Shown one piece after another: positions 9,501 through 64,000 of a DNA stretch of 64,000 nt. The stretch spans positions 15,165-79,164 of the forward strand of contig CACYNF010000001.1 of the NCBI GenBank assembly GCA_902775595.1, read 5' to 3'. The position numbers and the translations under genes were made by a program. Position 1 is the first letter of the stretch, and each line of letters opens with the position of its first letter. Source of the DNA: an uncultured bacterium. GTDB lineage: Bacteria; Verrucomicrobiota; Kiritimatiellia; RFP12; UBA1067. Below the pieces are notes generated by a model. It searched no databases. It saw only the letters and a list, made by a program, of their open reading frames with translations, and had not been told where the DNA came from.

Positions 9501-11070
9501 CGCCCTGCGTCGGCGTATCGACGATGTAGCGCACCGTCGCGGCGCCGGCGGGTATCACAGTTTCGGACGTGACGCTCGTCTCGACATGCGCAGTTCCTGC
9601 GAACGAATACGATCCCGCTGCCTGGACCTCCGGCGAAACGAGCCACGAGAGCGTATGCTCTCCCGCGCCGTTGACTTCCACGGGCTCTCCGGCGGCGATT
9701 GCCACGCCATCGAGCGCGAGGGCAAGCGCCTCGTCGCTGCCAGTCGCCGTGAAGGTGACGGAAACAGCGCCTTCCGGCGTATTCAACGGCTGCGAGCCTT
9801 CGATCTTGTCCGGGCCGTCCCACGCGGCGATCTGCGTAATCTCATTATCTGTGAGTTCGCGCGCGAAGATCTGCGGGCGAACCTCCACGCCGGTGAACAC
9901 GGCGGTGGCCGCACTTGGCGCAGTAGCAGCCGTGCCAGTACCAGTCCCTTCGGTATCGACCAACGCCGAGCCGTCGAGGAACACGGCGTAGCGCGCACCG
10001 GCAGAACGTCCGAGGATAAGCGCGACATGGTGCCATGCGCCGTCGAAGAGGCCTCCCGAAGCCGAGGCGACGGCATTCCCGCCGCGGTCCGCGACGAGCG
10101 CGCCGGACGAGTCGAGCCAAAGCGAAACAGACCCGGAATCGACGGAGTTCTCGCTTTGTGCGGCAAAAAGCGACACATAGCCGCCGGCCGCCGGCGCGGC
10201 GGATGCGGGGGCGAAGAACCAGAGGGACACCGAAACGCTCTCGGCGTTCTCGAGCTCGTTCGTCGTGGCGATGGTGACGATATAGTCGTCTTCTCCAGTG
10301 GCGGACGCCGCGTTCGCGAAGTCAAGCGCGCGCACACGCTCCACGTCGTTCGCGTCGCTCGCCGATGCACGTTCGACAACGGCTTCGTCGATCGTGTAGT
10401 TTCCGTCGGCAACGGACGCGATATCCTCGTCGTCAGCAAGCGGCTCCTTCCACGCAAGGGCTTCTTCTGAAGTCCAGGACTGCGAAGCCGAGAGAACGTC
10501 CGCAACCGATTCGACGATGGTCGTCTCGGTGTGCGTGTGCTGCTCGCTTGCGGGTCCTGCGGCAATGCTCTTTCCCTTCGCGAGGTCAACGGGGATGATG
10601 AACGTATCGACCACCTCGCCCGACTCGGACGCGGAATAGTCGACAAGGCGGACTATCGGATACTTCTTCGGGTTCACCTTGAACGGCACGACGACCATCG
10701 TGCCGCCGTTCGTTTCGTCAGGATACGCCTCCGGCGTCGTGCCGTCGGCGCCGTTTTCGTAGTCCTCGCTCGTCCAGAGGACGACGCGGGCGCCGGCCGC
10801 GACGGTCTGCGAAGGCAGGCGGTCGAACTTGCCGGCAACCGCCTCCTTGCCGCGGTTGAAGCGCTGCAGCTCGTAGTTCGCGAGGTCCACCGCCTGGTCG
10901 GACGTGTTCACGAGCTCGACCCAGCCGGACTTCTTTCCGTTCGGGTCGGGCGCATCGACAATATCGCCGTTGACAGTCATCCCCGGCTGCGGGCAGATTT
11001 CCGATATCCTCAGTTGCGCCGAGGCGGACATGGCCATCAAGGCCGCCAGTACGGGAAGAGCATATTTCAT
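6505..11070 (-). CDS. giant secreted protein: lamin-tail (LTD) domains + LamG-like + CotH kinase-like domain
   Basis: Signal peptide MKYALPVLAALMAMSASA. One LTD motif near the N-terminus (LRISEICPQP...GWVELVN) and two more near the C-terminus (ALVITNDNDVAVDVSGWVL, LRVLELMPKP). CotH-like core: VRIDLRGNTSGGWKKKSHGLRF and YPVRLQLNGAFYEMAFHSNRFTDELIEDYYG. ATG 11070, with GGAGG upstream, is preferred over the track's GTG 11076. Confidence 0.8.
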   Translation of the reverse strand: MKYALPVLAALMAMSASAQLRISEICPQPGMTVNGDIVDAPDPNGKKSGWVELVNTSDQAVDLANYELQRFNRGKEAVAGKFDRLPSQTVAAGARVVLWTSEDYENGADGTTPEAYPDETNGGTMVVVPFKVNPKKYPIVRLVDYSASESGEVVDTFIIPVDLAKGKSIAAGPASEQHTHTETTIVESVADVLSASQSWTSEEALAWKEPLADDEDIASVADGNYTIDEAVVERASASDANDVERVRALDFANAASATGEDDYIVTIATTNELENAESVSVSLWFFAPASAAPAAGGYVSLFAAQSENSVDSGSVSLWLDSSGALVADRGGNAVASASGGLFDGAWHHVALILGRSAGARYAVFLDGSALVDTEGTGTGTAATAPSAATAVFTGVEVRPQIFARELTDNEITQIAAWDGPDKIEGSQPLNTPEGAVSVTFTATGSDEALALALDGVAIAAGEPVEVNGAGEHTLSWLVSPEVQAAGSYSFAGTAHVETSVTSETVIPAGAATVRYIVDTPTQGADNGDLSGAIPYGPNIGPLYGVKHKLVDWNAFAQATNGQDYAVSFAVNPVSAMEGDQIVSVKLIYRADFGDEVTNAVAMAAGAYDKKGAGQTYADTISAAAVPAAGHLLRWAAVIEDAQGRTWRSPSFCDPDGSYQYYGTIVAPTADQVSANLQTFHLFADANSVAQMDIDADKQNKTLVPYNARVGIYDGSTGFYYDNVRIDLRGNTSGGWKKKSHGLRFNKSQPLTCTDPVTGQTVEEIRKTSFIAEYPDPAHIRQALSFQVFRDAGCLVPFDYPVRLQLNGAFYEMAFHSNRFTDELIEDYYGLDPEGYAYKNVGTFANYATTGTPEKKTPDDGHETDSTSQTVLKALCNDLAGSSVNETDDDSALDNAALSRKVVKHFDLPAWLHYLAVARITTETDDTWANISAYYDVNGTGTWMPLAYDLNSSWGQFYKDDGIGQIGPLADEDWFKAHPLYGGYRIMAHKSEGGDVIGGAIGSSTCRGNRAIDAIYQDARFRRMYLRRLRTLMDEVLKAPGTAKEDTPFWQWVQMVTDAEWEDARLDQMHWEQSSASGKTYANSEIWVWKNTPRFNWDADGNEITPNGLDDLWDNYIEPRRTHLFVTHSETNTAKTIGYAWDKNAGIPESQAPTETLRAGFAVVNTYVNEGGSTLFDAANQTALVITNDNDVAVDVSGWVLSGSVSYTMAPGTVIDAHGVLIVAADRKAYVEANLANLTDEMLVGNAAFDGSVSSLFFKDAAGVEVFKLVEPTDVSRNLRVLELMPKPAGDGDTGEYIVLTNCSAEVTLDLAGVRVSGTDFEFTVGEGTLAPGGTIRFDRADWWPEAKIKNGKPDVYIYDANGTLGQHCHVETKWEGFEAANQQGGSFLALGFGDEVTEPSQWTVLVPETGHIGAKSAEGFVILAEEDADYDASKPLTFGTPDPAVGTLAISASMIPPESGTTATLTLLYKTDLLVKEFSEIEVTVSDINVESGTATVTIPDELKNLPAAFFFGFTNGPGVE

Positions 11071-11085
11071 CGACACACCCTCCCC

Positions 11086-13948: not shown

Positions 13949-16900
13949 TCAACGAAGTTTCAAGACGAAGTTGCCGCGACGGATGACGACGGAGCCTCCG
14001 CCCCCAGATGAACTGTCCTCGACAGATGCGCCCAGCCCCGCGAGAGCCGCGGCGGAATAGGTGCCAGACTTGAGCTTGTTCGTAACAGCGCCGGAATCCG
14101 TCACCCAGTAGAATTCCCTGAGTGTGAGCGCATGGCCCTCAAGATCGAGAAACGCCGTGTCGTCGGCGAGCGTGACGGACTCGGCGCGGAAATCCGCGTT
14201 CACCGCCGCGCGTCCGTAGTTCGCGATCTCGTAGTGCGCTTTCTTGTAGTCCCTGAGGCTGTCGCCGCCGTAGCCGAGAGAGACCATTTCCGTCGTGTTG
14301 GTGTTGACGGGCGATTTGTTCTTGATTCTGCTCGTGATGTACCCCGCGTTCACCGGATCCATCGCAATGCGGATGATGCCGCCCTTCTCGCCGTCCGCGG
14401 CCGTTTCGAGATAGACCGTACCAGCTGAGGCGTCGCAGACAGCATTCGTTCCGCCCTTCCACCAGCTGCCGCCGCCCGCCTCGATGCGCCCCGCGAAATC
14501 CGAGAAGTCCGCGCCGGGTGCCGTGAGGCGGACGGCAATGCGCCCGCCCGCGCCCGCCCGGTCGTCGTAGTTGCCGCCATTGGCCCGCATCGTCCCGGCG
14601 CCGACGAGCCGGCCGGCCGTGACGTTGATGGCGCCGCCGACGCCGCCGGTCCGGCCGCCGTTGTTGGCCCTCGCTTCGGGAAGTCCGCTCGCGAGCGCGG
14701 TGCCGTCGAGCCGGAGCGTGCCGTCCACCCGGCATGCGATCGCGCCGCCTCCGGTCCGATTCCCTTCGGCGGTGCAGCCGGGGAGCCGCGGGTCGAAGAC
14801 GGAGTCGTAGGCGCGGGAAAGGGGCGCGCCGGACTCGTCGCGCCCGACGTAGAACGCGCGGCCGCCATGTGCGGTGGCGCCGAGCATGCCGCTCGTCGCG
14901 CCAAGCGACTCCTTGACGAAACCGCAGTCAGTCGCACGCAGCCAGCTATCTGATGTAACGGTCAGGTCGCCGCGAACCTCGAAGGAGCAGACTGGGAAAA
15001 TCGCGAGCGTATCCGAATTGTCGACGTTGCCGGTCAGCGGATGGAAGCCGATGGCGGCGTTGTTCGAGACGGCGACGCTGCCCGAGAAGACGAAATTCGT
15101 CCAGGGGACGAACATCCAGCGGTCCGCGATCGTCTGGTCGCCGGCACCGATGTTGAGCGCACCGCCCTCGTAGCGCAGGCCGCCGAGCGCCTCCGGGTCC
15201 GTCTCCATCCCGTAGCAGCTCGCGAGACCTCCGGGAAGCGTGAGCGTCGTTCCTACCGGGACACGCAAAAAGCCGCGGTGTCCGAACTCGATGGCGTCGA
15301 ACGTCCAGTTGCCCTCGTCCGTGACCGACGGGCAGCGCCAGAAAGTCGGATATTGCCCGAGTTCAGGGCCGTTCGCATTGGCCTGCTGTGCAATCACGAG
15401 AAGTCCGTTCGGGCGCGTCGCGTCGCGGAAGACGACCGTGCCGGAACCGCCGCCGTAGCGGGCGACCCAGTTGTCGGTGGGCGAGCCCATCCAGTAGCCC
15501 TCGGCGGAAATGGCGTCGAAGGTCGAACGGTCAACCGGGACGCGCGTGACGATCGCAACGCGCCCGCCCGTTCCCTTGTAGTTGCTGTCAACTGTGACTT
15601 GGTAGTCAGTATCAAAACTAATCCCTTCCTCCCTGAGTCCAGTCCCCATGGCAGTGATGCGTCCGGTCCCGGAAAGCGTGTCGGCCCTGAGGAACACCGA
15701 CCCCCCCGCGCCCAAAGCGCCGCCGTAATCGCCATTTTTGGTGAAACCGGAACTGGCATCCCAGGCATCTGAACGAATCGTTCCATCAACCACGGCCGCG
15801 CCGGACACTTCAATATAAATCGCGCCGCCCCCCTTGCCGTTCGCCTTATTGGAGGCGTTGGCGTGGAATGGCATGCCGATGTGAACCGGTTCGCGCGGGT
15901 CGCCGTAGCAGGGCGGGGAGTCCGCGTTCATCCGGCCGCCGTGGGAGCAGCCGGGAACACGCGAGCCATTGACGGTCACATAGTAGCCCTTGCCGCGCGC
16001 GTCAATCACGCCGCCCGCGCCGACGTGCAGCGAGCCGGCCGAGATGCAGATGCGGTAGGTCTCGTTGGCCTTCAGATCGCCCAGCCAGTCCCAGTTCGCA
16101 TCGTGATAGGTCGCCATTGTGCGCGACTGCGGATGTGTGAGGGAGCCTCCGTCGACGACCATCGCGCCCGTGACGGTCAGGCACTCGAAATCGCCCTTCC
16201 CGGGGAATGTCGTGCACAGCGTGTTTGTGCCGGTAAAGGTGGAGAACTGCGTCCAGGACGCGACCGTGTGCGAGGCGGCGGCGTCCCATTCACAGGCGGC
16301 GTTCGAGAGCTGTCCGTCGAAGACGACATGCTCGTCGGAGTGCGGCGCGTGGCCGAGCGACCAGTTGGCGTCAACCGAGGCGAGGCCATCGGCGGCCGCC
16401 TTCCATGCATTGACCGCGCCGTTGACGATCGTCAGCGTCGCAGAGCCCGCCGAAGACGAAATCCCGTAGAGTCCGGACGCGAGCGTAAGCGTCACCGTCG
16501 CGTCGGCGGTCACGGCGCTGTCGAGAAGCGGCACGACCGCGACGTCAACCGAAGCCGCGCCGTCGGGAATCGTCACGACATGCGGAACGGATTCGTAGGT
16601 CTGCCCTTCGGCGGCGGTGCCGTCGAGCGTGAACGCCACGACGAGATCGTTCGCGGTGTCGGCGCGCGTGATGCGGAACGCCCCCGGCACAAGCCCGGCC
16701 TCGTTCGCGTCGGACACCTTCGAGACAGAGAGATCGCCGGTGTAGAGCGCCGTGGCGCCGGAAGCGGAAGACGTCAGCCTGTCTGCGGATTCCGCGACAA
16801 CCGTGTACGTGTAGGTCGTGTCGTCCGCAAGACGTGAAATAATCCCCGAATACGTCTTCGGCAGCGAAGCGTCCGCACTGGTCATTGGGAATGCGTTTGC

Positions 16901-18169
16901 GCCGATGACGCACGAAATGGCGACAGCGTCGACATCAGACACGACGACAGACACGGTAAACGATCCGTCCGCGTTTCTCGCAGCCGTCGGCGTCGCAAGG
17001 TTCGGCGCACCGGTAAGCTGGGCCGCGCCGTACTCAAGGAACGCGGCATTCGCCATCGAATCGTATTCGGCCTTCTGCCAGTCGTCTGAAGTCGCGACGC
17101 CGCGCAGCCGCACTTCGTCGATGACTCCCTTCCAGCTTCTGTCGCCTTCAGCTCCGTTGTATCCGTCCGTGTCGTTGCCGAAAACCCAGTACATGTCGTT
17201 GTCGGTAGCCTTGCTGAAGTGCGAACCCGCGCCGCCAATTAGTGCGCCGTCCTGATAGACGCTGGCCGAGCTCCCGTCGAACACGAACACGAGATATGAC
17301 CACGTGTTCTTGAGCGTGGAGACGGAAACGCTGTTGGCGTCGTCATTGCCGTTGTTGCCGCCGCGTAGGTCAAGCGCGTCCTTGGCATTCCGCATCTCGA
17401 TGGCGATGCAGCCGTTAGTGGAACCTGACGCATCACGCTTGTAGAACAGGTGGTCGTAGTAGTAGTCCTGGTTCTTGTGCCAGAACCAGCCGGAGATCGT
17501 GAATACGCCGTTGAACTTCGTGCAGTCTTGCGAGCCATCGACATAGATGCCGCCAATCTTGTTCTTTGCATCGGACGAATCGGAAATCTGCCGTCCGCCG
17601 CCTACCTTTCCGGCGACGCCGAGCGTAGTCGGCGTGTTTGCGCCGTCAAGCGCCGAGCCGTTCGCAGTCGAGTTCGCGGAAGTTCCGCCCGCTCCCGCTT
17701 CGCCGAGATGCCAGACTCCGGCGTAGTCTGCGCTCCACGGATTTTCCGCGTTCATGGCCTTGCCAGACGACCCGGAACCCCAGAACATCGCGAACTGCGT
17801 CCCGTTCGTCATCTCCGGCAGCCGCACCCAGACGAGCGACTCGCCGAACGCGTCCCACGTGTCGATCTCGTAGGCGAGACCGTTGCCCTGCATGTCGGTG
17901 AAGCCGATGTCGATGTCGGCGAGATCGGTTGCCGCCGCGTTCTTCACGTCTCTATAGAAGAAGCCGCCGATGCCGGTGCCGGCCGTCTCGTCGCGCTCCG
18001 CGATGCGCACGAGGACGGGAAAGTTCTCAAGCGTCGACTGCCCTGCGTAGCCGTCTACCGTCAGCACGGCTCCCTTTGCGAATTCAGCGCTCTGCGGACG
18101 CGGCAACGCGGCATCTGCCGTCGCCGCGAACGCAAGCGACAGTACCACAAGAATGCAGCGTTTCCTCAT
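13949..18169 (-). CDS. giant secreted protein: DUF2341 + LamG + Calx-beta-like + Gly-rich beta-helix-like region
   Basis: ATG 18169 gives the canonical signal peptide MRKRCILVVLSLAFAATADA; the track start at 18187 is GTG. DUF2341 motif FPVLVRIAER...LAYEIDTWDAFGESLVWVRLPEM. LamG strand WKGVIDEVRLRGVATSDDW. Confidence 0.75.
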   Translation of the reverse strand: MRKRCILVVLSLAFAATADAALPRPQSAEFAKGAVLTVDGYAGQSTLENFPVLVRIAERDETAGTGIGGFFYRDVKNAAATDLADIDIGFTDMQGNGLAYEIDTWDAFGESLVWVRLPEMTNGTQFAMFWGSGSSGKAMNAENPWSADYAGVWHLGEAGAGGTSANSTANGSALDGANTPTTLGVAGKVGGGRQISDSSDAKNKIGGIYVDGSQDCTKFNGVFTISGWFWHKNQDYYYDHLFYKRDASGSTNGCIAIEMRNAKDALDLRGGNNGNDDANSVSVSTLKNTWSYLVFVFDGSSASVYQDGALIGGAGSHFSKATDNDMYWVFGNDTDGYNGAEGDRSWKGVIDEVRLRGVATSDDWQKAEYDSMANAAFLEYGAAQLTGAPNLATPTAARNADGSFTVSVVVSDVDAVAISCVIGANAFPMTSADASLPKTYSGIISRLADDTTYTYTVVAESADRLTSSASGATALYTGDLSVSKVSDANEAGLVPGAFRITRADTANDLVVAFTLDGTAAEGQTYESVPHVVTIPDGAASVDVAVVPLLDSAVTADATVTLTLASGLYGISSSAGSATLTIVNGAVNAWKAAADGLASVDANWSLGHAPHSDEHVVFDGQLSNAACEWDAAASHTVASWTQFSTFTGTNTLCTTFPGKGDFECLTVTGAMVVDGGSLTHPQSRTMATYHDANWDWLGDLKANETYRICISAGSLHVGAGGVIDARGKGYYVTVNGSRVPGCSHGGRMNADSPPCYGDPREPVHIGMPFHANASNKANGKGGGAIYIEVSGAAVVDGTIRSDAWDASSGFTKNGDYGGALGAGGSVFLRADTLSGTGRITAMGTGLREEGISFDTDYQVTVDSNYKGTGGRVAIVTRVPVDRSTFDAISAEGYWMGSPTDNWVARYGGGSGTVVFRDATRPNGLLVIAQQANANGPELGQYPTFWRCPSVTDEGNWTFDAIEFGHRGFLRVPVGTTLTLPGGLASCYGMETDPEALGGLRYEGGALNIGAGDQTIADRWMFVPWTNFVFSGSVAVSNNAAIGFHPLTGNVDNSDTLAIFPVCSFEVRGDLTVTSDSWLRATDCGFVKESLGATSGMLGATAHGGRAFYVGRDESGAPLSRAYDSVFDPRLPGCTAEGNRTGGGAIACRVDGTLRLDGTALASGLPEARANNGGRTGGVGGAINVTAGRLVGAGTMRANGGNYDDRAGAGGRIAVRLTAPGADFSDFAGRIEAGGGSWWKGGTNAVCDASAGTVYLETAADGEKGGIIRIAMDPVNAGYITSRIKNKSPVNTNTTEMVSLGYGGDSLRDYKKAHYEIANYGRAAVNADFRAESVTLADDTAFLDLEGHALTLREFYWVTDSGAVTNKLKSGTYSAAALAGLGASVEDSSSGGGGSVVIRRGNFVLKLR

Positions 18170-18223
18170 ATGTCCAGCCCCCAACACTCGACAAAACTAC
18201 AAATGTACTTTTACCGTTTCGGC

Positions 18224-53746: not shown

Positions 53747-54235
53747 CTATGCCAATACCTGATATTTCAAGTCTGGATAGCCACCGACAAGTCGGGCCAA
53801 AGCGCCTGCGGAATCTATGGCCGCGAACACAACACTCTCTGAATGTTCGAGAATGTAGCGATTGCGGATGGAGGCCGTTCGTACATCGACACGCGCCACA
53901 GACCGAGCAACGGGCGAGATAACCAACAGACGCCCGGAGGCAATGGGCTCACGATAGAGCTTCGGAATGCCCTTCTCGGTCCATAGCTTGCGCGCCAGCA
54001 CCCAAATGACCGGTTGCTTCCCCTGGAGGAGAAACGCCAGCACATCCCTTTCAAGCGGACTCTGAAAGCCGCCCATGACGCACACGCCCTCATCGCGCAT
54101 CTCCGTCGCCCAGTCGTAGCACTTCATGACCGCCTCGGGCGGAACCTTGCGTGACGACAGAAAACCGACCTTGGGCAGATCAAGGATTGACTCATCTCCC
54201 AACGTAGCAATCTGTGCGGACTTGCTCATTCTCAT
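53747..54235 (-). CDS. DprA/Smf-like (SLOG-superfamily) Rossmann-fold protein, short form
   Basis: 162 aa. It is colinear with the DprA Rossmann core: VGFLSSRK.., VMGGFQSPLERDVLAFLLQGKQPVIWVLARKL (compare VSGxAxGIDxxAHxxAL...IAVL), LVISPV....RNRYILEHSESVVFAAID. The canonical GID/AH residues are replaced. Confidence 0.55.
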   Translation of the reverse strand: MRMSKSAQIATLGDESILDLPKVGFLSSRKVPPEAVMKCYDWATEMRDEGVCVMGGFQSPLERDVLAFLLQGKQPVIWVLARKLWTEKGIPKLYREPIASGRLLVISPVARSVARVDVRTASIRNRYILEHSESVVFAAIDSAGALARLVGGYPDLKYQVLA

Positions 54236-54340: not shown

Positions 54341-54746
54341 TTACTCCGCGTTTCCCTTCGCAACCTCCCAGTGTCCGCCCTTGCGCCCGCCGACTCTCAC
54401 GATCTTGCCTTCGGACTTCAGCTGCGCAAGGTTCTTCTCCACGCCACGCACCGAAAGTCCGACTTCCCTTGCCAGGCGTTCGCGTGTGATGTACGGGTAC
54501 TGGGCGATGAGATCAAGAATCTTTACCACACTTTTTACCATACCTTTTCCCACACTCATCTTCACTTCGGCCAATGCATCACGCAGCGCAAGAAGCATGA
54601 ACTCGATGAACCTTCTGGCATCACCTGTGCGATCAGCAAAGGTGCGTGGCAATCTCCGTTATCTCGGCGACAAGCGAGATCATCTTATCGCTCAAAGTAT
54701 AACTCGGGACTTTCCCGGTTCTCCGCGTCACATTTTTCTTCTTCAT
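54341..54746 (-). pseudogene. Fic-like (or AlbA_2-type regulator) remnant: N-terminal stub + out-of-frame C-terminal winged-helix domain, catalytic core missing
   Basis: The 54633-54746 frame reads MKKKNVTRRTGKVPSYTLSDKMISLVAEITEIATHLC* (Fic_N-like). The 54341-54652 frame reads ...DARRFIEFMLLALRDAL...ILDLIAQYPYITRERLAREVGLSVRGVEKNLAQLKSEGKIVRVGGRKGGHWEV (wHTH). No HPFxxGNGR motif is present. Confidence 0.4.
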
Positions 54747-54923: not shown

Positions 54924-55070
54924 TCATATCATTCGAACTGGCGCCAGTACGACAGACTTCCCCGTCCCGGCCTCGCCCGACACATAGAAGTTCCCGTCCT
55001 GCGCCATGGCAAAGTCAATCGCCGACGCCCGCTTTGGATCAAGTTTCTCTGTTTTCGGCAACCAACTCAT
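54924..55070 (-). pseudogene. truncated P-loop helicase (RecD/Pif1/AAA_30-like) N-terminal stub
   Basis: My own translation gives MSWLPKTEKLDPKRASAIDFAMAQDGNFYVSGEAGTGKSVVLAPVRMI*. The Walker A motif is followed by a stop. Its ATG overlaps the stop of the upstream nuclease gene (ATGA). Confidence 0.5.
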
Positions 55071-55813
55071 GTTATTATAGAAAAATGCGTCTCAGACTTC
55101 AGCAGCCTTTTCAAGCGATTCTGAATACCGCCAATCGTCATCAGTATCTGCGGTTCGAAGATGTTCGCGGGGATATTGTCGTGAATCGTGCAGACGATCT
55201 GCCGCGCAGGGCCGTCCTCCGTCACAAAGGCGGCCTCTCGTCTCGCCCACTGCATGACATTGACCATCGGTCCGCTTTTGACTTCAAACAGATAAAACCG
55301 CTTCTCGATCTGGACGACCAAGTCCATTTCGGTGAACAAGTCCGACTCACCCTTCCGCGTTAACTTGACATTCTGAAACATCTTGTATGCGAGATGATTG
55401 TCCGTGCAGAACTTCCACACCACCGTGGAAATTGCATAGCGGAAGCATTGTTCAGCCCACATCGAGCGGAAGAAGCGCAACTGATGTTCGTTCGAAGGAA
55501 GCTGCACGGAAAAATCACTCTTCTTGTGCGTCCACTCTGTCGCATATCCAATCTTTTCCAGTTCCAAGAGAAAGTTCCGCAAATGTCCACTGTCCTCGGC
55601 ATTCGGCACATGAAACTCGAATGTGCGCTTCTTTGCATTTACCTCCACTGCCAGCTTCGTCAGGAACGGCAGCAACACCCGCTTGTTCCTGAATATCTGC
55701 CGCGCCAGCTTGTAATCCTCGCCCGGCTGCTGGCTGACCTCTTCCTCATTGGCGATCTCGAACCCTCTCTCGCCAACGAACACCGCAAACGCTTTTGTCA
55801 GTTTAGTTGCCAT
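55067..55813 (-). CDS. PD-(D/E)xK nuclease-fold protein, Card1/DUF1887-like C-terminal domain
   Basis: 248 aa: FFRSMWAEQCFRYAI (compare GxWLEEYV) and TEMDLVVQIEKRFYLFEVKSG (D...E-x-K). I do not recognise the N-terminal ~100 aa. Confidence 0.55.
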   Translation of the reverse strand: MATKLTKAFAVFVGERGFEIANEEEVSQQPGEDYKLARQIFRNKRVLLPFLTKLAVEVNAKKRTFEFHVPNAEDSGHLRNFLLELEKIGYATEWTHKKSDFSVQLPSNEHQLRFFRSMWAEQCFRYAISTVVWKFCTDNHLAYKMFQNVKLTRKGESDLFTEMDLVVQIEKRFYLFEVKSGPMVNVMQWARREAAFVTEDGPARQIVCTIHDNIPANIFEPQILMTIGGIQNRLKRLLKSETHFSIIT

Positions 55814-55856: not shown

Positions 55857-57329
55857 TTACTTTCCAGCATTACCGTTGATAAATTCTTCATAATAAGTGG
55901 TAATTCCCCATCGGAAATCAGAGCAGCCCAACACACCTCTGCGTATGATTTCAGGAGAAACGCCGCACTTCAACAGAACCATTCCCATCATAAAACCCTC
56001 AAGCCAAAAATATGCTGACAGATACATCTTATCGTGTATGAGCGCCTTACTCTCTGAATGGGCAAACCCGTCACGTCGAGTTCGAAGATAATTTGTGTAC
56101 GCCAACCATGCATTGTCATTATCAAGATGAAAGAATGCGCACTTCATATTAAGTCGCGCCAAATCAAACAGCTCCTGAATCTTTGGAGGCTTAAACTTCA
56201 GTCGCCTGTAAAGCCAGTCCTTCAACTCCGGTTTGCTCCCCAACATTGCCAAGACATTGTCTGCATTGGTTTTGTGAACTTGATACCCCGGCATCTCTTC
56301 TCGCTTAAGGTTCAAATCCTCTCCATACAAATTGCGCGCCAAACCCTCAAACATAAAAACGAGCTCCGGAACGCCGCCATATGGGACTGCCGTCTGCCCT
56401 AATCTAAAATAAACAAGGCGCCCACAAATCCCTTCAATTTCATCATTCAACTTGAAATAGTTTTCCACAATACGCGGCAGTTCTTTTTCAACCACATCGT
56501 ATGGAACAAATATATCTTCTCGCTTTAACGGCGTCAACAGCTTCTGCGGCAAAGGCCTTCTATTTAGGTGCCAAGCAACACCTGCTGTTTTCATCGTTCC
56601 GCTCAATGGATAATCAGCCCTTCCACATCGACCATAATGCGTAGCATTCTTCCCAATCAACAGTCCAAAGAAGGAATTCAGACGGTGCTCATAATACTCG
56701 TAGCATCCCGTCTCACCATAATAGGGGAGCAACCCTTTTTTCGACTTAATAAAAACACACGGCTCATGACGCATCGTTTTCCGACTCGTTCCCTCCATTA
56801 TCGACTGAACTGGAAGAAATGCCAAATAAACACGGACGAAGGCATCCTCAAATATCAGTCGATGAGGCTCAACATGCTTTGACTTGCCGTCCTTTGGGCT
56901 GAAACATCCTCGATTCAACCATACATTCAAATTGCTAATGCCAAATGCATAAGACTCAAATGCAATATCTTCAGCAGAATCAAACCCCAAATCTCCAACC
57001 CACATTTCAATAAAACCAAGCTCTGCCGATTCAGTCCCCAACCCAAATCCTCGGCTCATCAGGCTCTGATGCTCAAGACACTTAAGTAATGCTACATGAC
57101 GTACTGGATGAACACACCCGCGCACAAAACCATCAAAATCTTTCGTTTCCCCCGGGTAGCCGAACAATCGCAGCGATGCGCCATCTTCTCCATGAGAAAA
57201 CGCGACCACCCCAGAAGCTTTCGTCTCTGTTCCCGGTCGCCACCAATATCCGCTCGCCCGAAAAGGTTTGAACTCATCATCCAAGCTCACAATCGCGCCA
57301 GCAACTTCATGCTCTTCTTCATCATCCAT
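55857..57329 (-). CDS. ApeA-like HEPN-domain defence protein
   Basis: 490 aa. The N-terminus is ApeA_NTD-like (FRASGYWWRPGTETKASGVVAFSHGEDGASLRLFGY). The C-terminal HEPN motif R-x4-H is in LRTRRDGFAHSES. GAGGAGG lies upstream of the ATG. Confidence 0.6.
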   Translation of the reverse strand: MDDEEEHEVAGAIVSLDDEFKPFRASGYWWRPGTETKASGVVAFSHGEDGASLRLFGYPGETKDFDGFVRGCVHPVRHVALLKCLEHQSLMSRGFGLGTESAELGFIEMWVGDLGFDSAEDIAFESYAFGISNLNVWLNRGCFSPKDGKSKHVEPHRLIFEDAFVRVYLAFLPVQSIMEGTSRKTMRHEPCVFIKSKKGLLPYYGETGCYEYYEHRLNSFFGLLIGKNATHYGRCGRADYPLSGTMKTAGVAWHLNRRPLPQKLLTPLKREDIFVPYDVVEKELPRIVENYFKLNDEIEGICGRLVYFRLGQTAVPYGGVPELVFMFEGLARNLYGEDLNLKREEMPGYQVHKTNADNVLAMLGSKPELKDWLYRRLKFKPPKIQELFDLARLNMKCAFFHLDNDNAWLAYTNYLRTRRDGFAHSESKALIHDKMYLSAYFWLEGFMMGMVLLKCGVSPEIIRRGVLGCSDFRWGITTYYEEFINGNAGK

Positions 57330-57350: not shown

Positions 57351-57670
57351 TCACAAACATACCCCACACTCCGCCCACACCGCACCAAGTTCATTCGCCA
57401 CATCTTCTAATGTCTTTAGTCCCTGCACCCAGCGCGGATTACGCAAGAATCCATATTCATCCAACAAGACGCCCTTATCTCCAAAAGAAAAAGCATGCTC
57501 GTGATGAACCATCCGAGCATCTACTTTTGAAGTCTCTATCAAATATCGTTCCACACCATTTCCCACTCGATCTTCACCAAATCGTCAAACAACTGCTTGC
57601 AGTTTTCCTGCTTCCAGTCATAGTTTCGCTGATAGACAGGAATGACGAATCGCTTCTTCGATCCGTCCAT
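57351..57670 (-). pseudogene. DUF262 (GmrSD/ParB-like nuclease family) remnant
   Basis: My own translation from ATG 57670 gives MDGSKKRFVIPVYQRNYDWKQENCKQLFDDLVKIEWEMVWNDI*, which contains the IPxYQRxYxW signature. It stops after 43 aa. The adjacent 71-aa ORF (57351-57566) is out of frame and lacks the DGQQR motif. Confidence 0.55.
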
Positions 57671-57762
57671 AAACTCCACTAATCTTGTCTCGTTGCCTTT
57701 CACAAGGAAAACACCTCAATTAATCACGTGCTAAATTGACACCCGTAAGAAGCCCACAAGGC

Positions 57763-58554
57763 TTATTGACAAATTATGTCATACAACTCTTGCAAATCTG
57801 CAGGAATACGATTGTTAACTCTTTGATATTTGGCAATCGACACCGCAAAATCGCGAAGCGACACTTTATCTGCAAAGGCACGTTGCCGAACCTGACCGAA
57901 CAACTCCTTGCCCGGAAATGTCTGCGTCCACATTCCATCATTCAAATTAGACGTGTATCGCATAACTGTAACATGGACCTTTTCTGCGATAGCATCTTTC
58001 GTCAGAGTCTCCTTGGATCGGTCCGTCATTGTGGCCACCCAATTTGCATTCACGATGTATTCACAGGCCTCTTTCTCACTTTTTAAGGAGAACACAGAAG
58101 GATGCTTCGGGAAGTCATCGAAAAATGTCTTGCGAAGATCAGCAATCACATCACAACAGGCGACCGAGTAAACCATTTGACCAGCAATCGCTTTAAGTTC
58201 ACTTTCAAAATCAAATCGAGTATTGGCGGACGCCTTCTCGCATGCTTTCATTGAAACAGCATCAATCAAATAATTCTCTATTTCATGACATGTACCACGG
58301 AAAATCTCCGTTCCTTCTTCATGCCACTTGTCGTGGTTGTCTCGCCCGAAATCCTTATCAATCAGTCCGTATGCGTTCACGCCAGCATGCTTTCGCTCAA
58401 ACGCAACAATGCCCTTGACCGCATGAACACATCCAGCAACCCGTACCTCAACCGAACCTGAATCAAAGACAAAAAGCTCCTTCAGGTATTCTGCCGTCAG
58501 TTCATCCTCCACATAGAGGCGTGCCTTGTATCCCCGCGCCCCAAATCCACTCAC
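57763..58554 (-). CDS. DUF4435 / TOPRIM (OLD-family-like) protein, AriB-like
   Basis: 263 aa: LYVEDELTAEYLKELF, GLIDKDF and CHEIENYL. The GTG start overlaps the ATPase stop (GTGA), with GGAGG 8 nt upstream. Confidence 0.75.
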   Translation of the reverse strand: MSGFGARGYKARLYVEDELTAEYLKELFVFDSGSVEVRVAGCVHAVKGIVAFERKHAGVNAYGLIDKDFGRDNHDKWHEEGTEIFRGTCHEIENYLIDAVSMKACEKASANTRFDFESELKAIAGQMVYSVACCDVIADLRKTFFDDFPKHPSVFSLKSEKEACEYIVNANWVATMTDRSKETLTKDAIAEKVHVTVMRYTSNLNDGMWTQTFPGKELFGQVRQRAFADKVSLRDFAVSIAKYQRVNNRIPADLQELYDIICQ

Positions 58555-60269
58555 AGTACACCTCCCTTCAAGAAGAAACGCTGCGATTCATAGACCGAGT
58601 TCCAGATGTCTTCGGAATGTGTCGCCACCACAAACTGCGATTTGGGAGAAACTTCAAGCAAAACAGGCAACAACAGCCGATGCCACACCTGATTCAAGTG
58701 CAACTCCGGCTCATCCATGAACACAAAGTCATACGGACGGCTTCTAAGTTCCTGTTCGAGTATCAACGCAGCAATCAGGCAGAACAACTCAATTTCTCCT
58801 GAACTGAGCGCGTCCACAGGAATCGGTTTTTCGACGTCTTTCTTCCGCAAAAAAATGTCGAACTTCATCTCACCGGCAATGTCCGCCAAGAACTCCATTT
58901 CCTCATCTGGATAAAACCGCCGCCAAGCCTTGTTCAACCGCTCGAACACCTTCTTGACCGTGTCAGCCATACCCTTGCCGGATGCGTAGCCCGCATATCC
59001 TTGAAGATTCACAAGCATTTGCTTGATGTCCGCAAGATTGTTTTCACCGGACGACACCGTCTGCACAGGATCACCGTTCCCCATCGTCATGCCAAGCCCC
59101 CCAACCAATCTTGGCGCACGCCATGACGAGAGATAGTACATCTTAAGTTTCCGCAACGCCTGAATATCCTCAATGGGCATCGGCAATGCCTGTGACTTCC
59201 CCTTCCCAGTCACAGTGGCATAGAATCCTTTGTTCGCGACATTGGACAGGCGAATCAAATCTCCATTCTCTTCACGAACCAGTTCTATGGAAACTTCACC
59301 CAACGCTGACCCTCGCACATCCTGACGAACGATATTTTGGTACGCCGGATTAAGCGTACTCATGCACGCCTCCAGAACGCTTGTCTTTCCGCTGCCGTTC
59401 AACCCTGCCAAAACACACATGCCATTGGCATCGTGCAAATCAATGTCAACCGACCGAATCGCTCGGTAATCCCTGATTTGAATTCGCGATATCTTCATTG
59501 GACCCAGCTCCTTTGCCTCACCACTTGACCTTGAAAACCGTTTCCTGTCCGTCTCCGCATGTGTCAGCAATTCGGATTCATCCAGCTCCCGCCCGTAAAT
59601 CCGAATGGCATGGATTGTCCCGATAAAACCATTGCTGAACTGCGCCAATTTTGATTTACCTAATCTGACATTATTGATGTATGCTATATCACGATGTTCA
59701 GCCGGGTATGCAGCGCAAAAAATCACCGTACCGTTTACGATAACGCGGAGCAACCGATACTGTCCAGAAATCGACACGCTCAAATGTACCAACGCATCCG
59801 TGGGGACACGTTCAAAACGGCTAATGGCAGATGGCAATGATCCCGCAACCAACGATCCATCACCCCGGCCATACAGCCCATGCTCACTAAAAGGCCCGAC
59901 ATCATGCGCCGACACTATCGAAAACATTCGCGCTTTTGCGGAAATCGTCAGTGCATACTCAATTGTAAAGCCGGTCCTATCTGCTGCATTATAGGCATCA
60001 ATCACATCGCGGAACTGATTAACATCCGTAACCGACATTGATGCCCGTCCATCGAAAAAAGCACCGTTATCAAACCAAGAGACACTCCCCTCGTTGATTG
60101 AAGCACTTCGGCCTTCATGGGCCAAGTCCGCCCATGTTGTCGCATTCAAACTTGTTTGATTCTTAGCGACGTTACAAACACCATCAAACCAAAGCAATAA
60201 TTTGTCGGCGGAATACACATCCTTTTTGGGTTTCGCCGCCCACATCGCTCCACGAGCTCCTATCAGCAT
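58551..60269 (-). CDS. LamG/ConA-like domain fused to an ABC/SMC-type ATPase (AriA-like)
   Basis: A single 572-aa frame. Residues ~20-250 are LamG_3-like (LLLWFDG, FTIEYALTIS, LVHLSVSISGQYRLLRVIVNGTVIF, NGFIGTIHAIRIYGRELDESELL). Residues ~255-572 are the ATPase (MKISRIQIRDYRAIRS, GLNGSGKTS, LSSGEIELF, FVFMDEPELHLN, VATHS). Confidence 0.75.
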   Translation of the reverse strand: MLIGARGAMWAAKPKKDVYSADKLLLWFDGVCNVAKNQTSLNATTWADLAHEGRSASINEGSVSWFDNGAFFDGRASMSVTDVNQFRDVIDAYNAADRTGFTIEYALTISAKARMFSIVSAHDVGPFSEHGLYGRGDGSLVAGSLPSAISRFERVPTDALVHLSVSISGQYRLLRVIVNGTVIFCAAYPAEHRDIAYINNVRLGKSKLAQFSNGFIGTIHAIRIYGRELDESELLTHAETDRKRFSRSSGEAKELGPMKISRIQIRDYRAIRSVDIDLHDANGMCVLAGLNGSGKTSVLEACMSTLNPAYQNIVRQDVRGSALGEVSIELVREENGDLIRLSNVANKGFYATVTGKGKSQALPMPIEDIQALRKLKMYYLSSWRAPRLVGGLGMTMGNGDPVQTVSSGENNLADIKQMLVNLQGYAGYASGKGMADTVKKVFERLNKAWRRFYPDEEMEFLADIAGEMKFDIFLRKKDVEKPIPVDALSSGEIELFCLIAALILEQELRSRPYDFVFMDEPELHLNQVWHRLLLPVLLEVSPKSQFVVATHSEDIWNSVYESQRFFLKGGVL

Positions 60270-60286
60270 AAGATCCCCTCCTTACA

Positions 60287-62146
60287 TTACAACACCACCT
60301 CAGTCTCGTCGCCGCAGATGTTGCGGAGGCGGAGGCGGAGGGGCTTCTTGGAACAAGCGATGGTGCCGTTCCAGTATTTGTTGGTCTTGGTTCCGTTGAG
60401 CCGGACGAGTCCAAACTTGTCGATCAGGATCTCCGCGTCGGAATGCCATGCTCCGGTCTTGCGGGTGCAATCGACCGAAATGGACTCGATCATCTCCAGT
60501 CCCGTCTCGGAGACCTTGATCTCCTTGAACTTCTTGCCGGGCTTTTGATTCAGGAAGCAACGCTCGTTGAACTCGGCGATTCTGCCGCGAACGCGATCCG
60601 AATCGAACTTCTCAATCGTGATGAGATACTTGTTGATCAAATCGTCCTTGTTGTCGCCGATGGAGTATTCAACCGTGTCGTTGACAACCACATCGCCCAG
60701 CACGGATTTGAGGTCGCGCAACTCCACTTTGATCAACGACGTGTCATCTTCCTTGATGATCTTGTTGACTTCTTCCTGGTCGATCTCGATGTAATAGACA
60801 ATGACCTTCTTCGTGCCAGACGGCAAATCAGGCATCGCCTCATGCAAAATCCGGAACATGAGCGGAGCATCCAACACGCGCGTGGTTGAATCCATCAAGT
60901 TCGGAACATAAACAGGAATCATCCCCAACTTGGAATCATGGATCGCCCCTTCCCAGAACGAATCAAGCGCATCCTCATTGCGCAAACCGGGAATAAGTGA
61001 CTTGATTTTATCCATCGTCTGAACTGGATTGCGATAGAGCTGAACTCCATCTTGCACGTCAAGGCATTTGAATGAAGTACCATCAATGGCGCACAACCGA
61101 TCGCGCGTCGTCTGTACCGAGTTGAGACCCACATCAGCATGGATGAACCGCCGCCCCAACTTCGCCGCAGCTGCTGCAGTCGTACCACTCCCACCAAAGA
61201 AGTCTGCGACAATCATCCCCGCATCAGAAGACGCGTTGATTATTCGCTCCAGCAAAGCCTCTGGTTTTTGCGTGGCATAATCAACAGGCTCTTCCTTGTC
61301 GGCTGGCTGCAACATGGACATACGCCACACATCATCAACAGTATACTCATCAGATTCAATGTAAATCACCTTTCCATTCTCATCCTTAGCATTGACAAGC
61401 TTCTGTTCCTCCTTGCTCCAAACACGCTTGATTTGCTTGACCTTTTCAGCTCGCTTTTCCTGAATTGGAGAGAACCTGAACTTATCCCCCTTACAGTAAA
61501 CATAAATTACATCATGATTCGATGCAAATCGCTTCACATTCCCTTGCATCTTATTGTAGTAATGCCAGATAATCTCATTAACAAAATTGTCCTCGCCAAA
61601 AATCTCGTCCATCAGCACTTTCACATAATGACCGATGTGCCAATCAAGATGCACATAGATAGATGCAGTATCGCTCATCACCGATTTGATGGCGCAGAGA
61701 TTCTCATACATCCAGTTGAGATACTTCTCCTTCTCCCACACGTCGCCGTACATCTTTTCCTCAAAGGCGGCGAGACGGTCGTCATCGATCTGTTCGCCCT
61801 CTTCGACCTTGCCAGACTTGCCCTTAAGCGGATTACGCCGGAGATAGACTTTCTTCGCGTAGTCCGCGCCGGACGCAAACGGCGGATCAATGTAAACAAG
61901 GTCAACCTTGACCCCCTTATCCTTCAGGTAGGCGCATGCGCTCAGGCATTCGCCGCGGATCACGAGATTGCCTGTCTTGGCATCCGTACCGACCTGCTCC
62001 TTCAGCTCCATCTCATAACGCGGCATGCCACGGCGAATACGGTCCTTGACCTTGTCATCGCCGTAATAGCGCAACGTACGCGTGAAATTGAGAATCGCCT
62101 GTCCCTTGACCGGATCGGGTGTAAAAGGTATGAATTTCGCGCTCAT
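60287..62146 (-). CDS. Type III-like DNA methyltransferase (Mod; beta-class N6A/N4C MTase) with a long C-terminal extension
   Basis: Motif IV is DLVYIDPPFASG and motif I is ADFFGGSGTTAAAA, in beta-class order. About 280 aa follow motif I. ATG 62146 has AAGGAG upstream; the track start 62149 is GTG. Confidence 0.8.
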   Translation of the reverse strand: MSAKFIPFTPDPVKGQAILNFTRTLRYYGDDKVKDRIRRGMPRYEMELKEQVGTDAKTGNLVIRGECLSACAYLKDKGVKVDLVYIDPPFASGADYAKKVYLRRNPLKGKSGKVEEGEQIDDDRLAAFEEKMYGDVWEKEKYLNWMYENLCAIKSVMSDTASIYVHLDWHIGHYVKVLMDEIFGEDNFVNEIIWHYYNKMQGNVKRFASNHDVIYVYCKGDKFRFSPIQEKRAEKVKQIKRVWSKEEQKLVNAKDENGKVIYIESDEYTVDDVWRMSMLQPADKEEPVDYATQKPEALLERIINASSDAGMIVADFFGGSGTTAAAAAKLGRRFIHADVGLNSVQTTRDRLCAIDGTSFKCLDVQDGVQLYRNPVQTMDKIKSLIPGLRNEDALDSFWEGAIHDSKLGMIPVYVPNLMDSTTRVLDAPLMFRILHEAMPDLPSGTKKVIVYYIEIDQEEVNKIIKEDDTSLIKVELRDLKSVLGDVVVNDTVEYSIGDNKDDLINKYLITIEKFDSDRVRGRIAEFNERCFLNQKPGKKFKEIKVSETGLEMIESISVDCTRKTGAWHSDAEILIDKFGLVRLNGTKTNKYWNGTIACSKKPLRLRLRNICGDETEVVL

Positions 62147-62149
62147 CAC

Positions 62150-64000
62150 TTACTCCTTGAAGAACTTGTTGATCTCATCCACCAGCAACCCCTGCCACTG
62201 ACCGCCCTTGTCTTCCTGCAGATAGAGGTAATCGTATTCGGGAAATCCGTTGCCGCCCTTGTTCTGCGCAAGGAAGGTCGTCTGCATAAACGCCTTGCGC
62301 GACTTGAACGCTGGATCATTGGCGTAGAGTTCGCCCTTGGTTTCGACAATCAGGCACTTGACGATCTTCTTACGCGCCTTGTCCCGCTGGATGATCAGGA
62401 AGTCGGGCGTGTACTGTCCGACGGACTGCTGGATGCCGCCGACCTTGCGATAGCAGCGGATGCGGAACTCGGTAAACGGCGCATCGCCGTTGTAGTAAAT
62501 CTCAAGATGCTTTGATTTCAGCTCGGCCGTGGCAATCGCCCGCTTGAAGAAGTCCCTCTCAAAGCCGCTGTCGGTCTTGTAGGGCAGATAGTGGTAAGAA
62601 TAATCCTTGGCGTTTGCGCCGGACTCTGCACGAGCGATCTTCTCACGATAAAGTGCTGCCGCATCTTCATCTTCCTCTGCGATGGCCTCTTCCAGTCGCT
62701 GACGCCACTTCTCGACATTCGGATTCGTCGTGACCGTGGAGATACCCTTCTCGTCATCGCGAATGATCTGTGCACATTCCTTTTGGTTGGGGAGATATGA
62801 CTTTTCGTCGGCGACAAGCTCCTCACGATGCTCATTCAGATACTGCACATTCAACAGCTTTGCATCAGTCGGAATTTCCTCCTCGTTGACCGTCAGCTTG
62901 CGGCTCGGCCAATAGGCGCGGCGAATTGCAGACCGAATTTCGTCTTGGCGATAGGATGCGGAAAGGACGCTATCACCATCCGAATCCTTGACCGAAATCA
63001 ATTTGAATATCTCACGGAGAATCTTGTCCTCGGCTTTCAATTCCGCAAGCTTAAGTACGCCAAAACTCTCCTTGCTGACCTCCGAAAGCCAAGCCGAATA
63101 GGACATGGCGAACGGACGATCGGCATAAGAGCCATGCGTCGTGGAAATGTCCTTTTTCGTGTCCTTGAAATCGCCGGTGGCGATGGTTTCCGTAGTGCGA
63201 AACCCCTTCAACTTGCGCTTCAAGGCCTTGAGGCGTTCTGCAACCGGAACCTTGTCCACGGCCACATCATCCCCATAGCTGACCTTCAGCTGGTAGAACG
63301 GCAATGTGGGCAGATCGAGCTTCGCCGTGCGGTCATAGCGCTTGATGAGAATACCGTCCGTCACGCCAGACTGGAAGGCCTGAAGAGTCGTGTGCTGCTG
63401 CTGCGCCAGCTGGTCTTCAAGATGCTTTCCGTTGGATGCGTTCAGATAGATCGAGGCCGACTCTTCCGCGGCATTCTCAACCTCTCGCATGCATCGGCAG
63501 GACGTCTGCAAGACCATCTTGCGCGGACAGTCGCCGTCCTGCGAAAGAATAACCCCGGCGAGGCTGCGGCAATCCCAGCCTTCCTTGCCGATCTGCACAA
63601 GCAACACGACACGCTTCTTAGAAAACGCAAAATCGAGCTGCTCGAATTCAAGCTGAGCACCCTCGGGTTCCTTATACTTGGCATTGCCCCGATGGTATTT
63701 GAGGATTGCAGTCGCCGGATCGAGTCCACAGCCTTTGACGATCTTCGCGACCTCGGGATAGACCTCTTCCTCCAACCGATCCACCCCTCCACAGTAAATG
63801 GCCAGCTTGGCGAAACAACCGTTCGCATATTTCTTGCGACCGAACCTCTCAAAGAACTCCTTGACGCCACGACGCACAATGGAAAGTGGCTGGGTGGCCC
63901 CGCTCACCACAGTCACAGTCGGCTTCTTGAGGAAATCACCGACACCACACACCAACGGATAATAGTAGACAGTGCTGGCGATCTCCTCCGTCTTAAACGC
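62150..64000 (-). CDS. Type III restriction enzyme Res subunit (C-terminal 617 aa; 5' end beyond the window)
   Basis: The frame stays open to position 64000. Helicase C-terminal motifs are present (VQIGKEGWDCRSL, LQTSCRCMR). A C-terminal PD-(D/E)xK motif reads YTPDFLIIQ...CLIVETKGE. The stop abuts mod. Confidence 0.75.
   Translation of the reverse strand, partial: AFKTEEIASTVYYYPLVCGVGDFLKKPTVTVVSGATQPLSIVRRGVKEFFERFGRKKYANGCFAKLAIYCGGVDRLEEEVYPEVAKIVKGCGLDPATAILKYHRGNAKYKEPEGAQLEFEQLDFAFSKKRVVLLVQIGKEGWDCRSLAGVILSQDGDCPRKMVLQTSCRCMREVENAAEESASIYLNASNGKHLEDQLAQQQHTTLQAFQSGVTDGILIKRYDRTAKLDLPTLPFYQLKVSYGDDVAVDKVPVAERLKALKRKLKGFRTTETIATGDFKDTKKDISTTHGSYADRPFAMSYSAWLSEVSKESFGVLKLAELKAEDKILREIFKLISVKDSDGDSVLSASYRQDEIRSAIRRAYWPSRKLTVNEEEIPTDAKLLNVQYLNEHREELVADEKSYLPNQKECAQIIRDDEKGISTVTTNPNVEKWRQRLEEAIAEEDEDAAALYREKIARAESGANAKDYSYHYLPYKTDSGFERDFFKRAIATAELKSKHLEIYYNGDAPFTEFRIRCYRKVGGIQQSVGQYTPDFLIIQRDKARKKIVKCLIVETKGELYANDPAFKSRKAFMQTTFLAQNKGGNGFPEYDYLYLQEDKGGQWQGLLVDEINKFFKE

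Follow-up and report, generated by a model that had tools for sequence, protein, structure and literature searches.

In this work we describe a gene of a rumen bacterium (Kiritimatiellia) in which a LamG/ConA-like domain is fused to an ABC/SMC-type ATPase, followed by an overlapping gene for a DUF4435/TOPRIM protein. The locus lies on the minus strand of contig CACYNF010000001.1, and the coordinates used are those of the whole stretch of 64,000 nucleotides (nt) that was analysed, here called the window. The fused domain is maintained by purifying selection and has its affinities with proteins encoded in phages, the ATPase and its partner retain their catalytic motifs, and the pair is embedded in a defence island of low guanine plus cytosine (GC) content. 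For this pair we propose, by analogy, a PARIS-like abortive-infection module in which a phage LamG protein may have been exapted as an added trigger receptor, a reading that we hold to be evenly poised between right and wrong. The elements of the two genes are the following:

60277 to 60283, minus strand: Shine-Dalgarno (SD) sequence AAGGAGG, 7 nt 5' of the fusion ATG, inside the 17-nt gap that follows the stop codon of the upstream Mod gene
59538 to 60269, minus strand: LamG/ConA-like jelly-roll, amino acids (aa) 1-244, supported by a sub-threshold Pfam match, hidden Markov models (HMM), alignment A2, AlphaFold2 (AF2), Foldseek and the ratio of nonsynonymous to synonymous substitutions (dN/dS)
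59499 to 59537, minus strand: linker FSRSSGEAKELGP, aa 245-257, with a predicted local distance difference test (pLDDT) score below 50 at aa 248-257
59508 to 59513, minus strand: internal AAGGAG, which forms codons K253-E254 and precedes the ATG of M258 by 9 nt
58554 to 59498, minus strand: ABC/SMC-type ATPase module, aa 258-572 (315 aa), supported by Pfam, PADLOC and profiles against the PDB
58551 to 58554, minus strand: GTGA overlap between the stop codon of the ATPase and the GTG start of the DUF4435 gene, with GGGAGGTG immediately upstream
57763 to 58554, minus strand: DUF4435/TOPRIM effector candidate of 263 aa, supported by Pfam and PADLOC

An earlier note on this DNA had read the first gene as a single frame of 572 codons, and one uninterrupted open reading frame (ORF) of that length is indeed present in the ORF listing (58551-60269, minus strand, with its ATG at 60269 and AAGGAGG 7 nt upstream). 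The GTAAGGAG core, formed by the stop codon of the preceding methyltransferase gene and the SD sequence, is unchanged across four related loci (L001-L004). The GTGA overlap with the 263-aa gene, also pointed out in that note, was read at 58551-58554 and is indicative of translational coupling of the ATPase and DUF4435 genes; a stop/start overlap exists as well in L001-L003, in the form of ATGA in L002. The overall picture given there, one polypeptide with a LamG/ConA fold and an ABC ATPase, coupled to a TOPRIM protein with intact acidic residues, was thus recovered.

The same note had considered that the frame upstream of the internal methionine might be untranslated. The frame proved to be maintained. 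Three orthologous loci for which the full DNA was available (L001-L003, 88-95% protein identity) are collinear with the window gene, with zero indels, and dN/dS was estimated on them by the Nei-Gojobori method, with dS of up to 0.64. Values of 0.15-0.20 were obtained for codons 1-257 (the LamG part), 0.055-0.10 for the ATPase part and 0.13-0.21 for the DUF4435 gene. More than 60 variants of the fusion are represented in metagenomes, and in the clusters around the fusion proteins 19 or more different sequences have a length of exactly 572 aa; in these full-length sequences the LamG part shows 77-100% identity to the window protein (100 of its 257 columns being variable) and the ATPase part 91-100% (65 of 315). 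The low dN/dS, the lack of indels and the existence of 19 diverged versions of the same length argue that the LamG frame is kept by selection, and since in all 19 the reading frame passes from one part to the other without a stop codon, anything translated from M1 must be the fusion protein. The evolutionary rate of the LamG part is about double that of the ATPase part. Faster evolution is typical of sensor domains.

The linker holds what appears to be the scar of the fusion event. All unfused ATPase homologues start (MKISRIQ...) at the position of M258, and the fact that AAGGAG is still found 9 nt before this old start suggests that the fusion took place through loss of a stop codon. Judging from these sequences, the most likely route would begin with a LamG gene located directly upstream of the ATPase gene, the stop codon of which was lost, the spacer and the ribosome-binding site becoming the linker. 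The linker is probably the former stop codon plus the intergenic spacer of two ancestral genes, and the hexamer may be a relic of the ribosome-binding site of the ancestral ATPase gene that might still function. The extant three-gene intermediate, with a separate LamG gene upstream of an unfused ATPase gene, was not seen in L006-L009. The two codons of the hexamer (AAG-GAG) are identical in four orthologues and the next two codons show synonymous changes; with four sequences only, this constancy would be weak evidence for a retained site. It can be taken, together with the fact that distant homologues all function as proteins of about 320 aa, in favour of a different view of the fusion, namely that the 315-aa product of the internal site is the working protein and the long form is just tolerated or a regulatory by-product. 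We regard this as rather unlikely: the dN/dS of the 257 codons and the absence of indels or stops in 19 sequences diverged by up to 23% disfavour a passive fusion, the fusion gene has a strong SD sequence of its own, and any LamG made from the long mRNA is necessarily fused. Database entries of 315 aa are products of truncated contigs and are uninformative on the existence of a short isoform.

The assignment of aa 1-250 to a LamG/ConA jelly-roll, made in the earlier note, needed independent support because the Pfam match to Laminin_G_3 (PF13385) is below threshold (20.3 bits against a cutoff of 27.6, E 6.7e-4). A precomputed match to PF13385 exists for one fusion orthologue, graded 'weak' in the locus table, and an HMM search ties aa 1-257 to homologues that do pass the PF13385 threshold (P0091, P0130 and P0074). 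Modelling with AF2 was done on a 29-sequence family alignment (A3), six near-identical sequences alone having given a pLDDT of 41. The resulting model of the domain (pLDDT 70, predicted template modelling score, pTM, 0.75) is a beta-sandwich closed by a C-terminal helix, disordered at aa 1-14, in the loop 116-152 and in the linker 248-257. Foldseek comparison with the PDB retrieved the lectin-like domain of trypanosomal trans-sialidases (E 1.6e-10, template modelling score around 0.6, probability 1.0) and a cyanopodophage tailspike (E 1.4e-8), and further the carbohydrate-binding domain of the AbnA arabinanase and Hc domains of clostridial neurotoxins. Among predicted viral structures (BFVD), the matches were to phage 'LamG-like jellyroll' proteins, an S-PM2 virion structural protein and a minor tail protein (E 1e-13 to 1e-9). 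The ConA/LamG fold of the fused N-terminal domain is confirmed by this predicted structure, in agreement with the homologues linked by HMM.

The loop at aa 116-152 (window 59814-59924), with pLDDT below 50, is yet nearly invariant among the fusion orthologues and is absent or different in the standalone phage LamG proteins described below. This combination makes it, in the model, a candidate binding or docking element of the LamG module.

Several of the best structural matches bind carbohydrates (the trans-sialidase lectin, AbnA domain 4, a GH54 arabinofuranosidase and the ganglioside-binding neurotoxin Hc), and LamG could accordingly be imagined as a sensor of a glycan cue, such as glycosylated phage DNA or a cell-envelope precursor building up during infection, instead of a protein. 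The neighbouring gene in relatives encodes GmrSD, and GmrSD acts on modified DNA, which would fit. We nevertheless give this idea a low probability, in view of the lack of identifiable sugar-binding residues in the LamG module, the low pLDDT of the long loop, and the fact that ConA-like folds serve just as commonly to bind proteins.

The origin of the domain was addressed through an exhaustive HMM search with aa 1-257 (profile A1) over 1.84 billion representative proteins, which yielded 186 relatives of two kinds. The first are large secreted proteins of 700-2300 aa, which have classical signal peptides and in which Laminin_G_3 is repeated several times. The second are standalone proteins of 230-260 aa, devoid of signal peptide and collinear with the fused domain from end to end (alignments A2 and A3), with 21-28% identity over the full length. 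These share with the fusion an N-terminal motif, MxxGARxAxW (aa 1-10) followed by YxxDGLxxxxDGxxN, as well as the closing strand and helix (aa 213-244), RxYxRxLxxxEIxxNYxxDKxRF, and they end in ...RF(N/G/S)LP, 2-3 residues past the position at which the linker of the fusion starts. An N-terminus without signal peptide is what fits a cytoplasmic ATPase. An HMM built on A3 covers positions 1-239 of the fusion, with a score that is partly circular since A3 contains fusion sequences; independent support comes from profile A1, made with fusions only, which finds the standalone proteins. A word-indexed homology search with aa 1-257 returned only near-identical fragments.

The standalone family is encoded in nine IMG/VR viral contigs (L010-L018), often as tandem paralogues: eight in a contig of 251 kb (L016, 1293-8997) and five or six in another of 57 kb (L011, 5084-9763). 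Their PHROG-annotated neighbours are genes for tail fibre, tail, internal virion protein, terminase and major head. In L010, L012, L014 and L019, proteins of 170-190 aa are encoded upstream of the LamG genes. In L019 a standalone gene is placed at a prophage-like end, followed by small ORFs, a short fragment of a Mg-chelatase gene, which we read as ComM-like, and core genes (recA, recQ). Among species-representative genomes, the family is found in rumen and gut metagenome-assembled genomes (MAGs) of Kiritimatiellae, Lentisphaerales, Clostridia and Bacilli. By sequence and gene neighbourhood, the fused LamG is a full-length member of this phage tail-module family. Fusions of this LamG subfamily to other defence domains were not found among the mid-length hits, all of which contain Laminin_G_3 only; P0166 is a fragment of a multi-LamG protein, and L026, an apparent match reaching into the linker, was discarded for want of a convincing ORF.

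One of the phage-like contigs (L021, 110 kb) also harbours a textbook diversity-generating retroelement at 3555-5292. Its variable repeat (3555-3682) lies at the 3' end of a gene for a 581-aa protein and is followed by the template repeat (3826-3953) and by the gene for a reverse transcriptase of the RVT_1 type (4162-5292). The two repeats differ at 14 positions, every one of them an adenine in the template repeat. Two standalone LamG paralogues are located 3 kb downstream of the retroelement.

The earlier note had connected the domain with the giant surface proteins of the host at 6.5-18.2 kb of the window, for which LamG would be the signature. The connection did not hold, since the A1 and A3 HMMs gave no match to these proteins at E<=1e-3, and the possibility that the LamG part is a copy from them was rejected. 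As for the signature, it applies to one protein of the three:

6505 to 11076, minus strand: giant protein with LTD and CotH kinase domains
11086 to 13908, minus strand: giant protein with LRR_5 and DUF2341 domains
13949 to 18187, minus strand: giant protein with DUF2341 and Laminin_G_3 domains, the only one of the three with Laminin_G_3

With respect to distribution, the fusion was found only in close relatives, with at least 77% identity in the LamG part, the hosts being probably rumen and gut Kiritimatiellae. From this pattern of sequences, the fusion appears young, phylogenetically narrow and confined to one lineage. When genomes and metagenomes were scanned for fusions of greater divergence, the hits were all either standalone relatives or near-identical copies. 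Homologues of the ATPase outside the fusion clade have at most 44% identity, 315-345 aa and no fused LamG, a few carrying C-terminal extensions. At three unfused loci that were read (one in a Kiritimatiellae MAG, one in a Planctomycetes MAG and one in a metagenome), the ATPase gene is followed in each case by an overlapping gene for a protein of 270-290 aa. The partner in L006 has a weak DUF4435 hit, for those in L007 and L008 no Pfam match is recorded, and all three align with the window partner and keep the TOPRIM residues. The widespread, general form thus appears from sequence to be an unfused ATPase of about 320 aa with an overlapping partner gene. Both forms coexist in MAG GCA_024405255.1: the fused gene, interrupted where its contig ends, is at L004:9944-10481, and L007:6001-7831 contains a paralogue of 322 aa without the fusion, together with the partner gene. 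L004 was considered as an independent fusion and rejected: of the sequence that normally precedes the fusion gene, 57 nt remain, among them the final 45 nt of the Mod gene, and the locus therefore reflects a deletion or relocation.

A region resembling a defence island was observed in L006 (434-10815), with two different pairs of the ATPase plus DUF4435 type in tandem (6001-7823 and 8879-10815). The cluster also holds genes for an AAA_21 protein, an ATPase_2/DUF234 protein and a Fic protein.

The ABC-ATPase motifs listed in the earlier note (Walker A, signature, Walker B and H-loop) are all where it had located them, and a further motif of the family was recognized:

59379 to 59405, minus strand: Walker A, GLNGSGKTS, aa 289-297
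59100 to 59135, minus strand: family motif YLSSWRAPRLVG
58782 to 58808, minus strand: signature, LSSGEIELF, aa 488-496
58692 to 58727, minus strand: Walker B, FVFMDEPELHLN, aa 515-526
58614 to 58628, minus strand: H-loop, VATHS, aa 548-552

YFSSWRAP is an invariant motif of this ATPase family. Pfam matches were above gathering scores for AAA_21 (3.6e-16), AAA_15 (2e-15) and SMC_N (1.1e-11). When the family profile was compared with the PDB, the best scores corresponded to PtuA-type chains (E 1e-25 to 1e-20, the closest solved ones being 9n69, 9e8z, 9vkz and 8ee4), AriA was retrieved at 1.5e-13, and weak hits were obtained to the OLD-family nuclease 6p74 and to GajA. PtuA was also the best PADLOC model (1e-24), with the AriA model matching as well.

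In the partner protein, PADLOC recognized AriB (8e-9) and AriAB (8e-11), and neither Pfam nor PADLOC gave any match to an HNH nuclease of the PtuB type, DUF4435, AriB and AriAB being the only hits. The acidic residues of a TOPRIM site are present:

58501 to 58518, minus strand: segment containing E16
58348 to 58368, minus strand: segment containing D66xD68
58267 to 58287, minus strand: segment containing E93-N94

E16, D66, D68, E93 and N94 are invariant in seven partner homologues, down to 15% identity. By order and spacing, E16/D66/D68/E93 correspond to the TOPRIM residues E26, D88, E90 and E122 of AriB, as given in the PARIS study that served as source for this comparison (Burman 2024, PMC11464382).

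The setting of the pair is a low-GC defence island with the order Res, Mod, LamG::ATPase, DUF4435 and GmrSD. The GC content is 0.45-0.55 at approximately 50-64 kb and 0.62-0.68 in the flanking chromosome. The two genes upstream of the fusion are:

60287 to 62149, minus strand: N6_N4 DNA methyltransferase, type III Mod-like (Pfam 2e-44, PADLOC MTase_III 1.6e-50), in one operon with the fusion gene and directly 5' of it
62150 to 64000, minus strand: 3' portion of a gene for a Res-like helicase/endonuclease (983 aa in relatives), which runs beyond the end of the window

In the fusion clade the order is conserved, with a Res of 983 aa and a GmrSD of 711 aa at its ends, and the synteny of Mod with the fusion is maintained in L001, L039, L040 and L042-L044. 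Scans for promoters and terminators remained at chance level, and the interval from Mod to the fusion gene contains no promoter-like site that exceeds chance.

This close association with a type III-like Res-Mod system raises the alternative that the pair is its guard, a back-up like the one that classical PARIS provides against anti-restriction, LamG recognizing a phage anti-restriction protein and not a component of the virion. The 17-nt gap between Mod and the fusion, with an SD sequence and without a promoter-like site, the Res-Mod-fusion synteny in every locus long enough, and the last 45 nt of Mod retained in L004 would all be in keeping with it, as would the triggering of PARIS by the anti-restriction protein Ocr (PMC11464382). 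However, the L004 module persists after glycosidase genes without Res-Mod, the unfused family is found without restriction-modification neighbours, and the relatives of LamG are located in structural modules of phages and not in early or anti-defence regions, so that we deem a guard role improbable. A function outside defence, as a lectin-tagged ABC/SMC-like housekeeping ATPase involved for example in DNA repair or carbohydrate metabolism, seems to us very improbable indeed: there is generic similarity to Rad50, RecF and SMC heads and the genome is rich in glycosidase genes, but the partner is a TOPRIM/DUF4435 protein, the matches to PADLOC defence models are far stronger than those to housekeeping proteins, the distribution is patchy, and the genes sit in a low-GC island between restriction-modification and GmrSD/ApeA-like genes.

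Some features of the island itself were also recorded. GmrSD is reduced in the window to a GmrSD_N (DUF262) stub of 54 aa (57539-57703, minus strand), likewise reduced in L040 and intact (711 aa, with both GmrSD_N and GmrSD_C) in L042-L044; the window ceases to be homologous to L001 and L002 at 57566. After the stub there is an ApeA_NTD1/PDC-S58-like gene (55857-57329), as in L040, and further downstream a NERD/PD-(D/E)xK-like gene (55067-55813), an HTH gene (54341-54652) and a PsyrA/DprA-like gene of 162 aa (a fragment, at 53747-54235). In Mod, whose length ranges from 620 to 673 aa, a central block (window 61283-61584, minus strand) does not align with L001 or L039, both flanks being 89-97% identical, a pattern suggestive of a swap of the target-recognition domain.

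Returning to the PARIS-like module with LamG as trigger receptor, we infer its defence activity, the sensor role of LamG, the trigger and the substrate of the nuclease by analogy. The ABC ATPase would hold the DUF4435 TOPRIM nuclease inactive, as in PARIS (PMC11464382). LamG, acting as infection sensor, would bind a phage component, for instance the partner or ligand to which the LamG protein of the phage itself binds; this is proposed because the domain is a homologue of a phage tail-module protein. Trigger binding and ATP would then cause a conformational change that frees or activates the nuclease, and the latter, by analogy with AriB, would cut tRNA or another nucleic acid and abort the infection. 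A more specific version, possible on the basis of sequence affinities though doubtful, is that LamG is a molecular mimic that docks on the assembly partner of the phage LamG (tail fibre, baseplate or chaperone) and triggers nuclease release in this way and not via an anti-restriction protein. Were it true, the system would sense virion assembly by means of a captured viral structural gene. In this version, the retained internal start might in addition give rise to mixed oligomers of long and short ATPase that tune sensitivity.

Several points weigh against the proposed module and have to be set beside it. Grouping of the ATPase with AriA is at odds with the profile scores, which place it nearer PtuA, and for this reason release in the style of PARIS is an analogy; as the ATPase, with 315 aa, falls about 150 aa short of solved AriA (464 aa), in line with the shortness suspected in the earlier note, the hexameric scaffold may not form. 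The Pfam match of the partner to DUF4435 (PF14491) is marginal (27.9 bits for a cutoff of 27), and a comparison with all PDB chains, solved AriB included, gave no sequence match for it, even by profile. LamG would not be required for the core mechanism, because the unfused family presumably works without it, and the retained internal site could yield a LamG-less isoform of 315 aa. Finally, the standalone LamG family is uncharacterised, its label as a tail module deriving from gene neighbourhood only, and with this subfamily also present in secreted host proteins, a host origin of the domain is not fully excluded.

How PARIS, Septu, OLD and Gabija acquire new trigger specificities is, to our knowledge, largely unexplained. 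Specificity in PARIS is thought to lie in the poorly conserved pores of AriA, and accretion of domains on defence ATPases is generally expected. The locus described here offers a natural experiment, with the same core module present with and without a discrete, faster-evolving additional domain, and is a good experimental entry point given the traceable phage origin, the visible fusion scar and the coexistence of both forms in GCA_024405255.1. If LamG sets specificity, the locus would clearly exemplify the capture of a viral structural gene by a host for use as an immune sensor, and would supply engineering with a portable recognition module. The results also draw attention to small LamG proteins in phages of the gut and rumen, which form a large and uncharacterised family with tandem amplification.

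The pair can be placed, by analogy, among two-gene, translationally coupled ATPase-nuclease modules of the PARIS/Septu/OLD kind. PARIS (AriA/AriB) was reportedly described in Rousset 2022. The designation 'PARIS-type' given in the earlier note is upheld for the architecture, an ABC ATPase with DUF4435, and not for the sequence, the ATPase being nearer PtuA (1e-25) than AriA (1.5e-13). The window pair resembles PARIS in the succession of an AAA_15/AAA_21-type ABC ATPase gene and a DUF4435 TOPRIM gene, in the conserved acidic TOPRIM residues, in the location in a defence island beside restriction genes and in matching the PADLOC models AriA, AriB and AriAB. It differs from PARIS in its shorter, PtuA-closer ATPase, in a partner without sequence match to solved AriB, and in the extra N-terminal LamG of about 245 aa, which is not mentioned in the study that defines 11 PARIS clades plus the merged AriAB and that reports Ocr as trigger (PMC11464382).

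From Septu and retron PtuA-PtuB, to which the closest solved and modelled ATPases belong, the pair is set apart by a TOPRIM/DUF4435 partner instead of the HNH protein PtuB, by the lack of a retron reverse transcriptase or noncoding RNA and by an ATPase that is about 100-200 aa shorter than PtuA. Some PtuA proteins carry N-terminal extensions. The combination of an ABC ATPase and a TOPRIM nuclease is shared with OLD and Gabija GajA; in contrast to these, the window ATPase and TOPRIM protein are encoded in two ORFs with overlapping stop codon in all orthologues, and the TOPRIM is of the DUF4435 type. With the standalone phage LamG proteins, the fused domain has in common the alignment from end to end, the N-terminal motif, the closing strand and helix, the predicted fold and the lack of signal peptide; those are free proteins, often encoded in tandem within structural modules, whereas the window copy is joined to a chromosomal defence ATPase. 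In the literature searched, no PARIS-, Septu- or OLD-type ATPase is described as carrying LamG, and no model in Pfam, NCBIfam or PADLOC covers the LamG plus ABC ATPase architecture, in support of the earlier suggestion of an undescribed variant. We therefore consider the pair PARIS-like in architecture and probably in logic, without filing it as a proven member of that system. The pairing of core ATPase and DUF4435 was already known, and the new part would be the ATPase that bears LamG.

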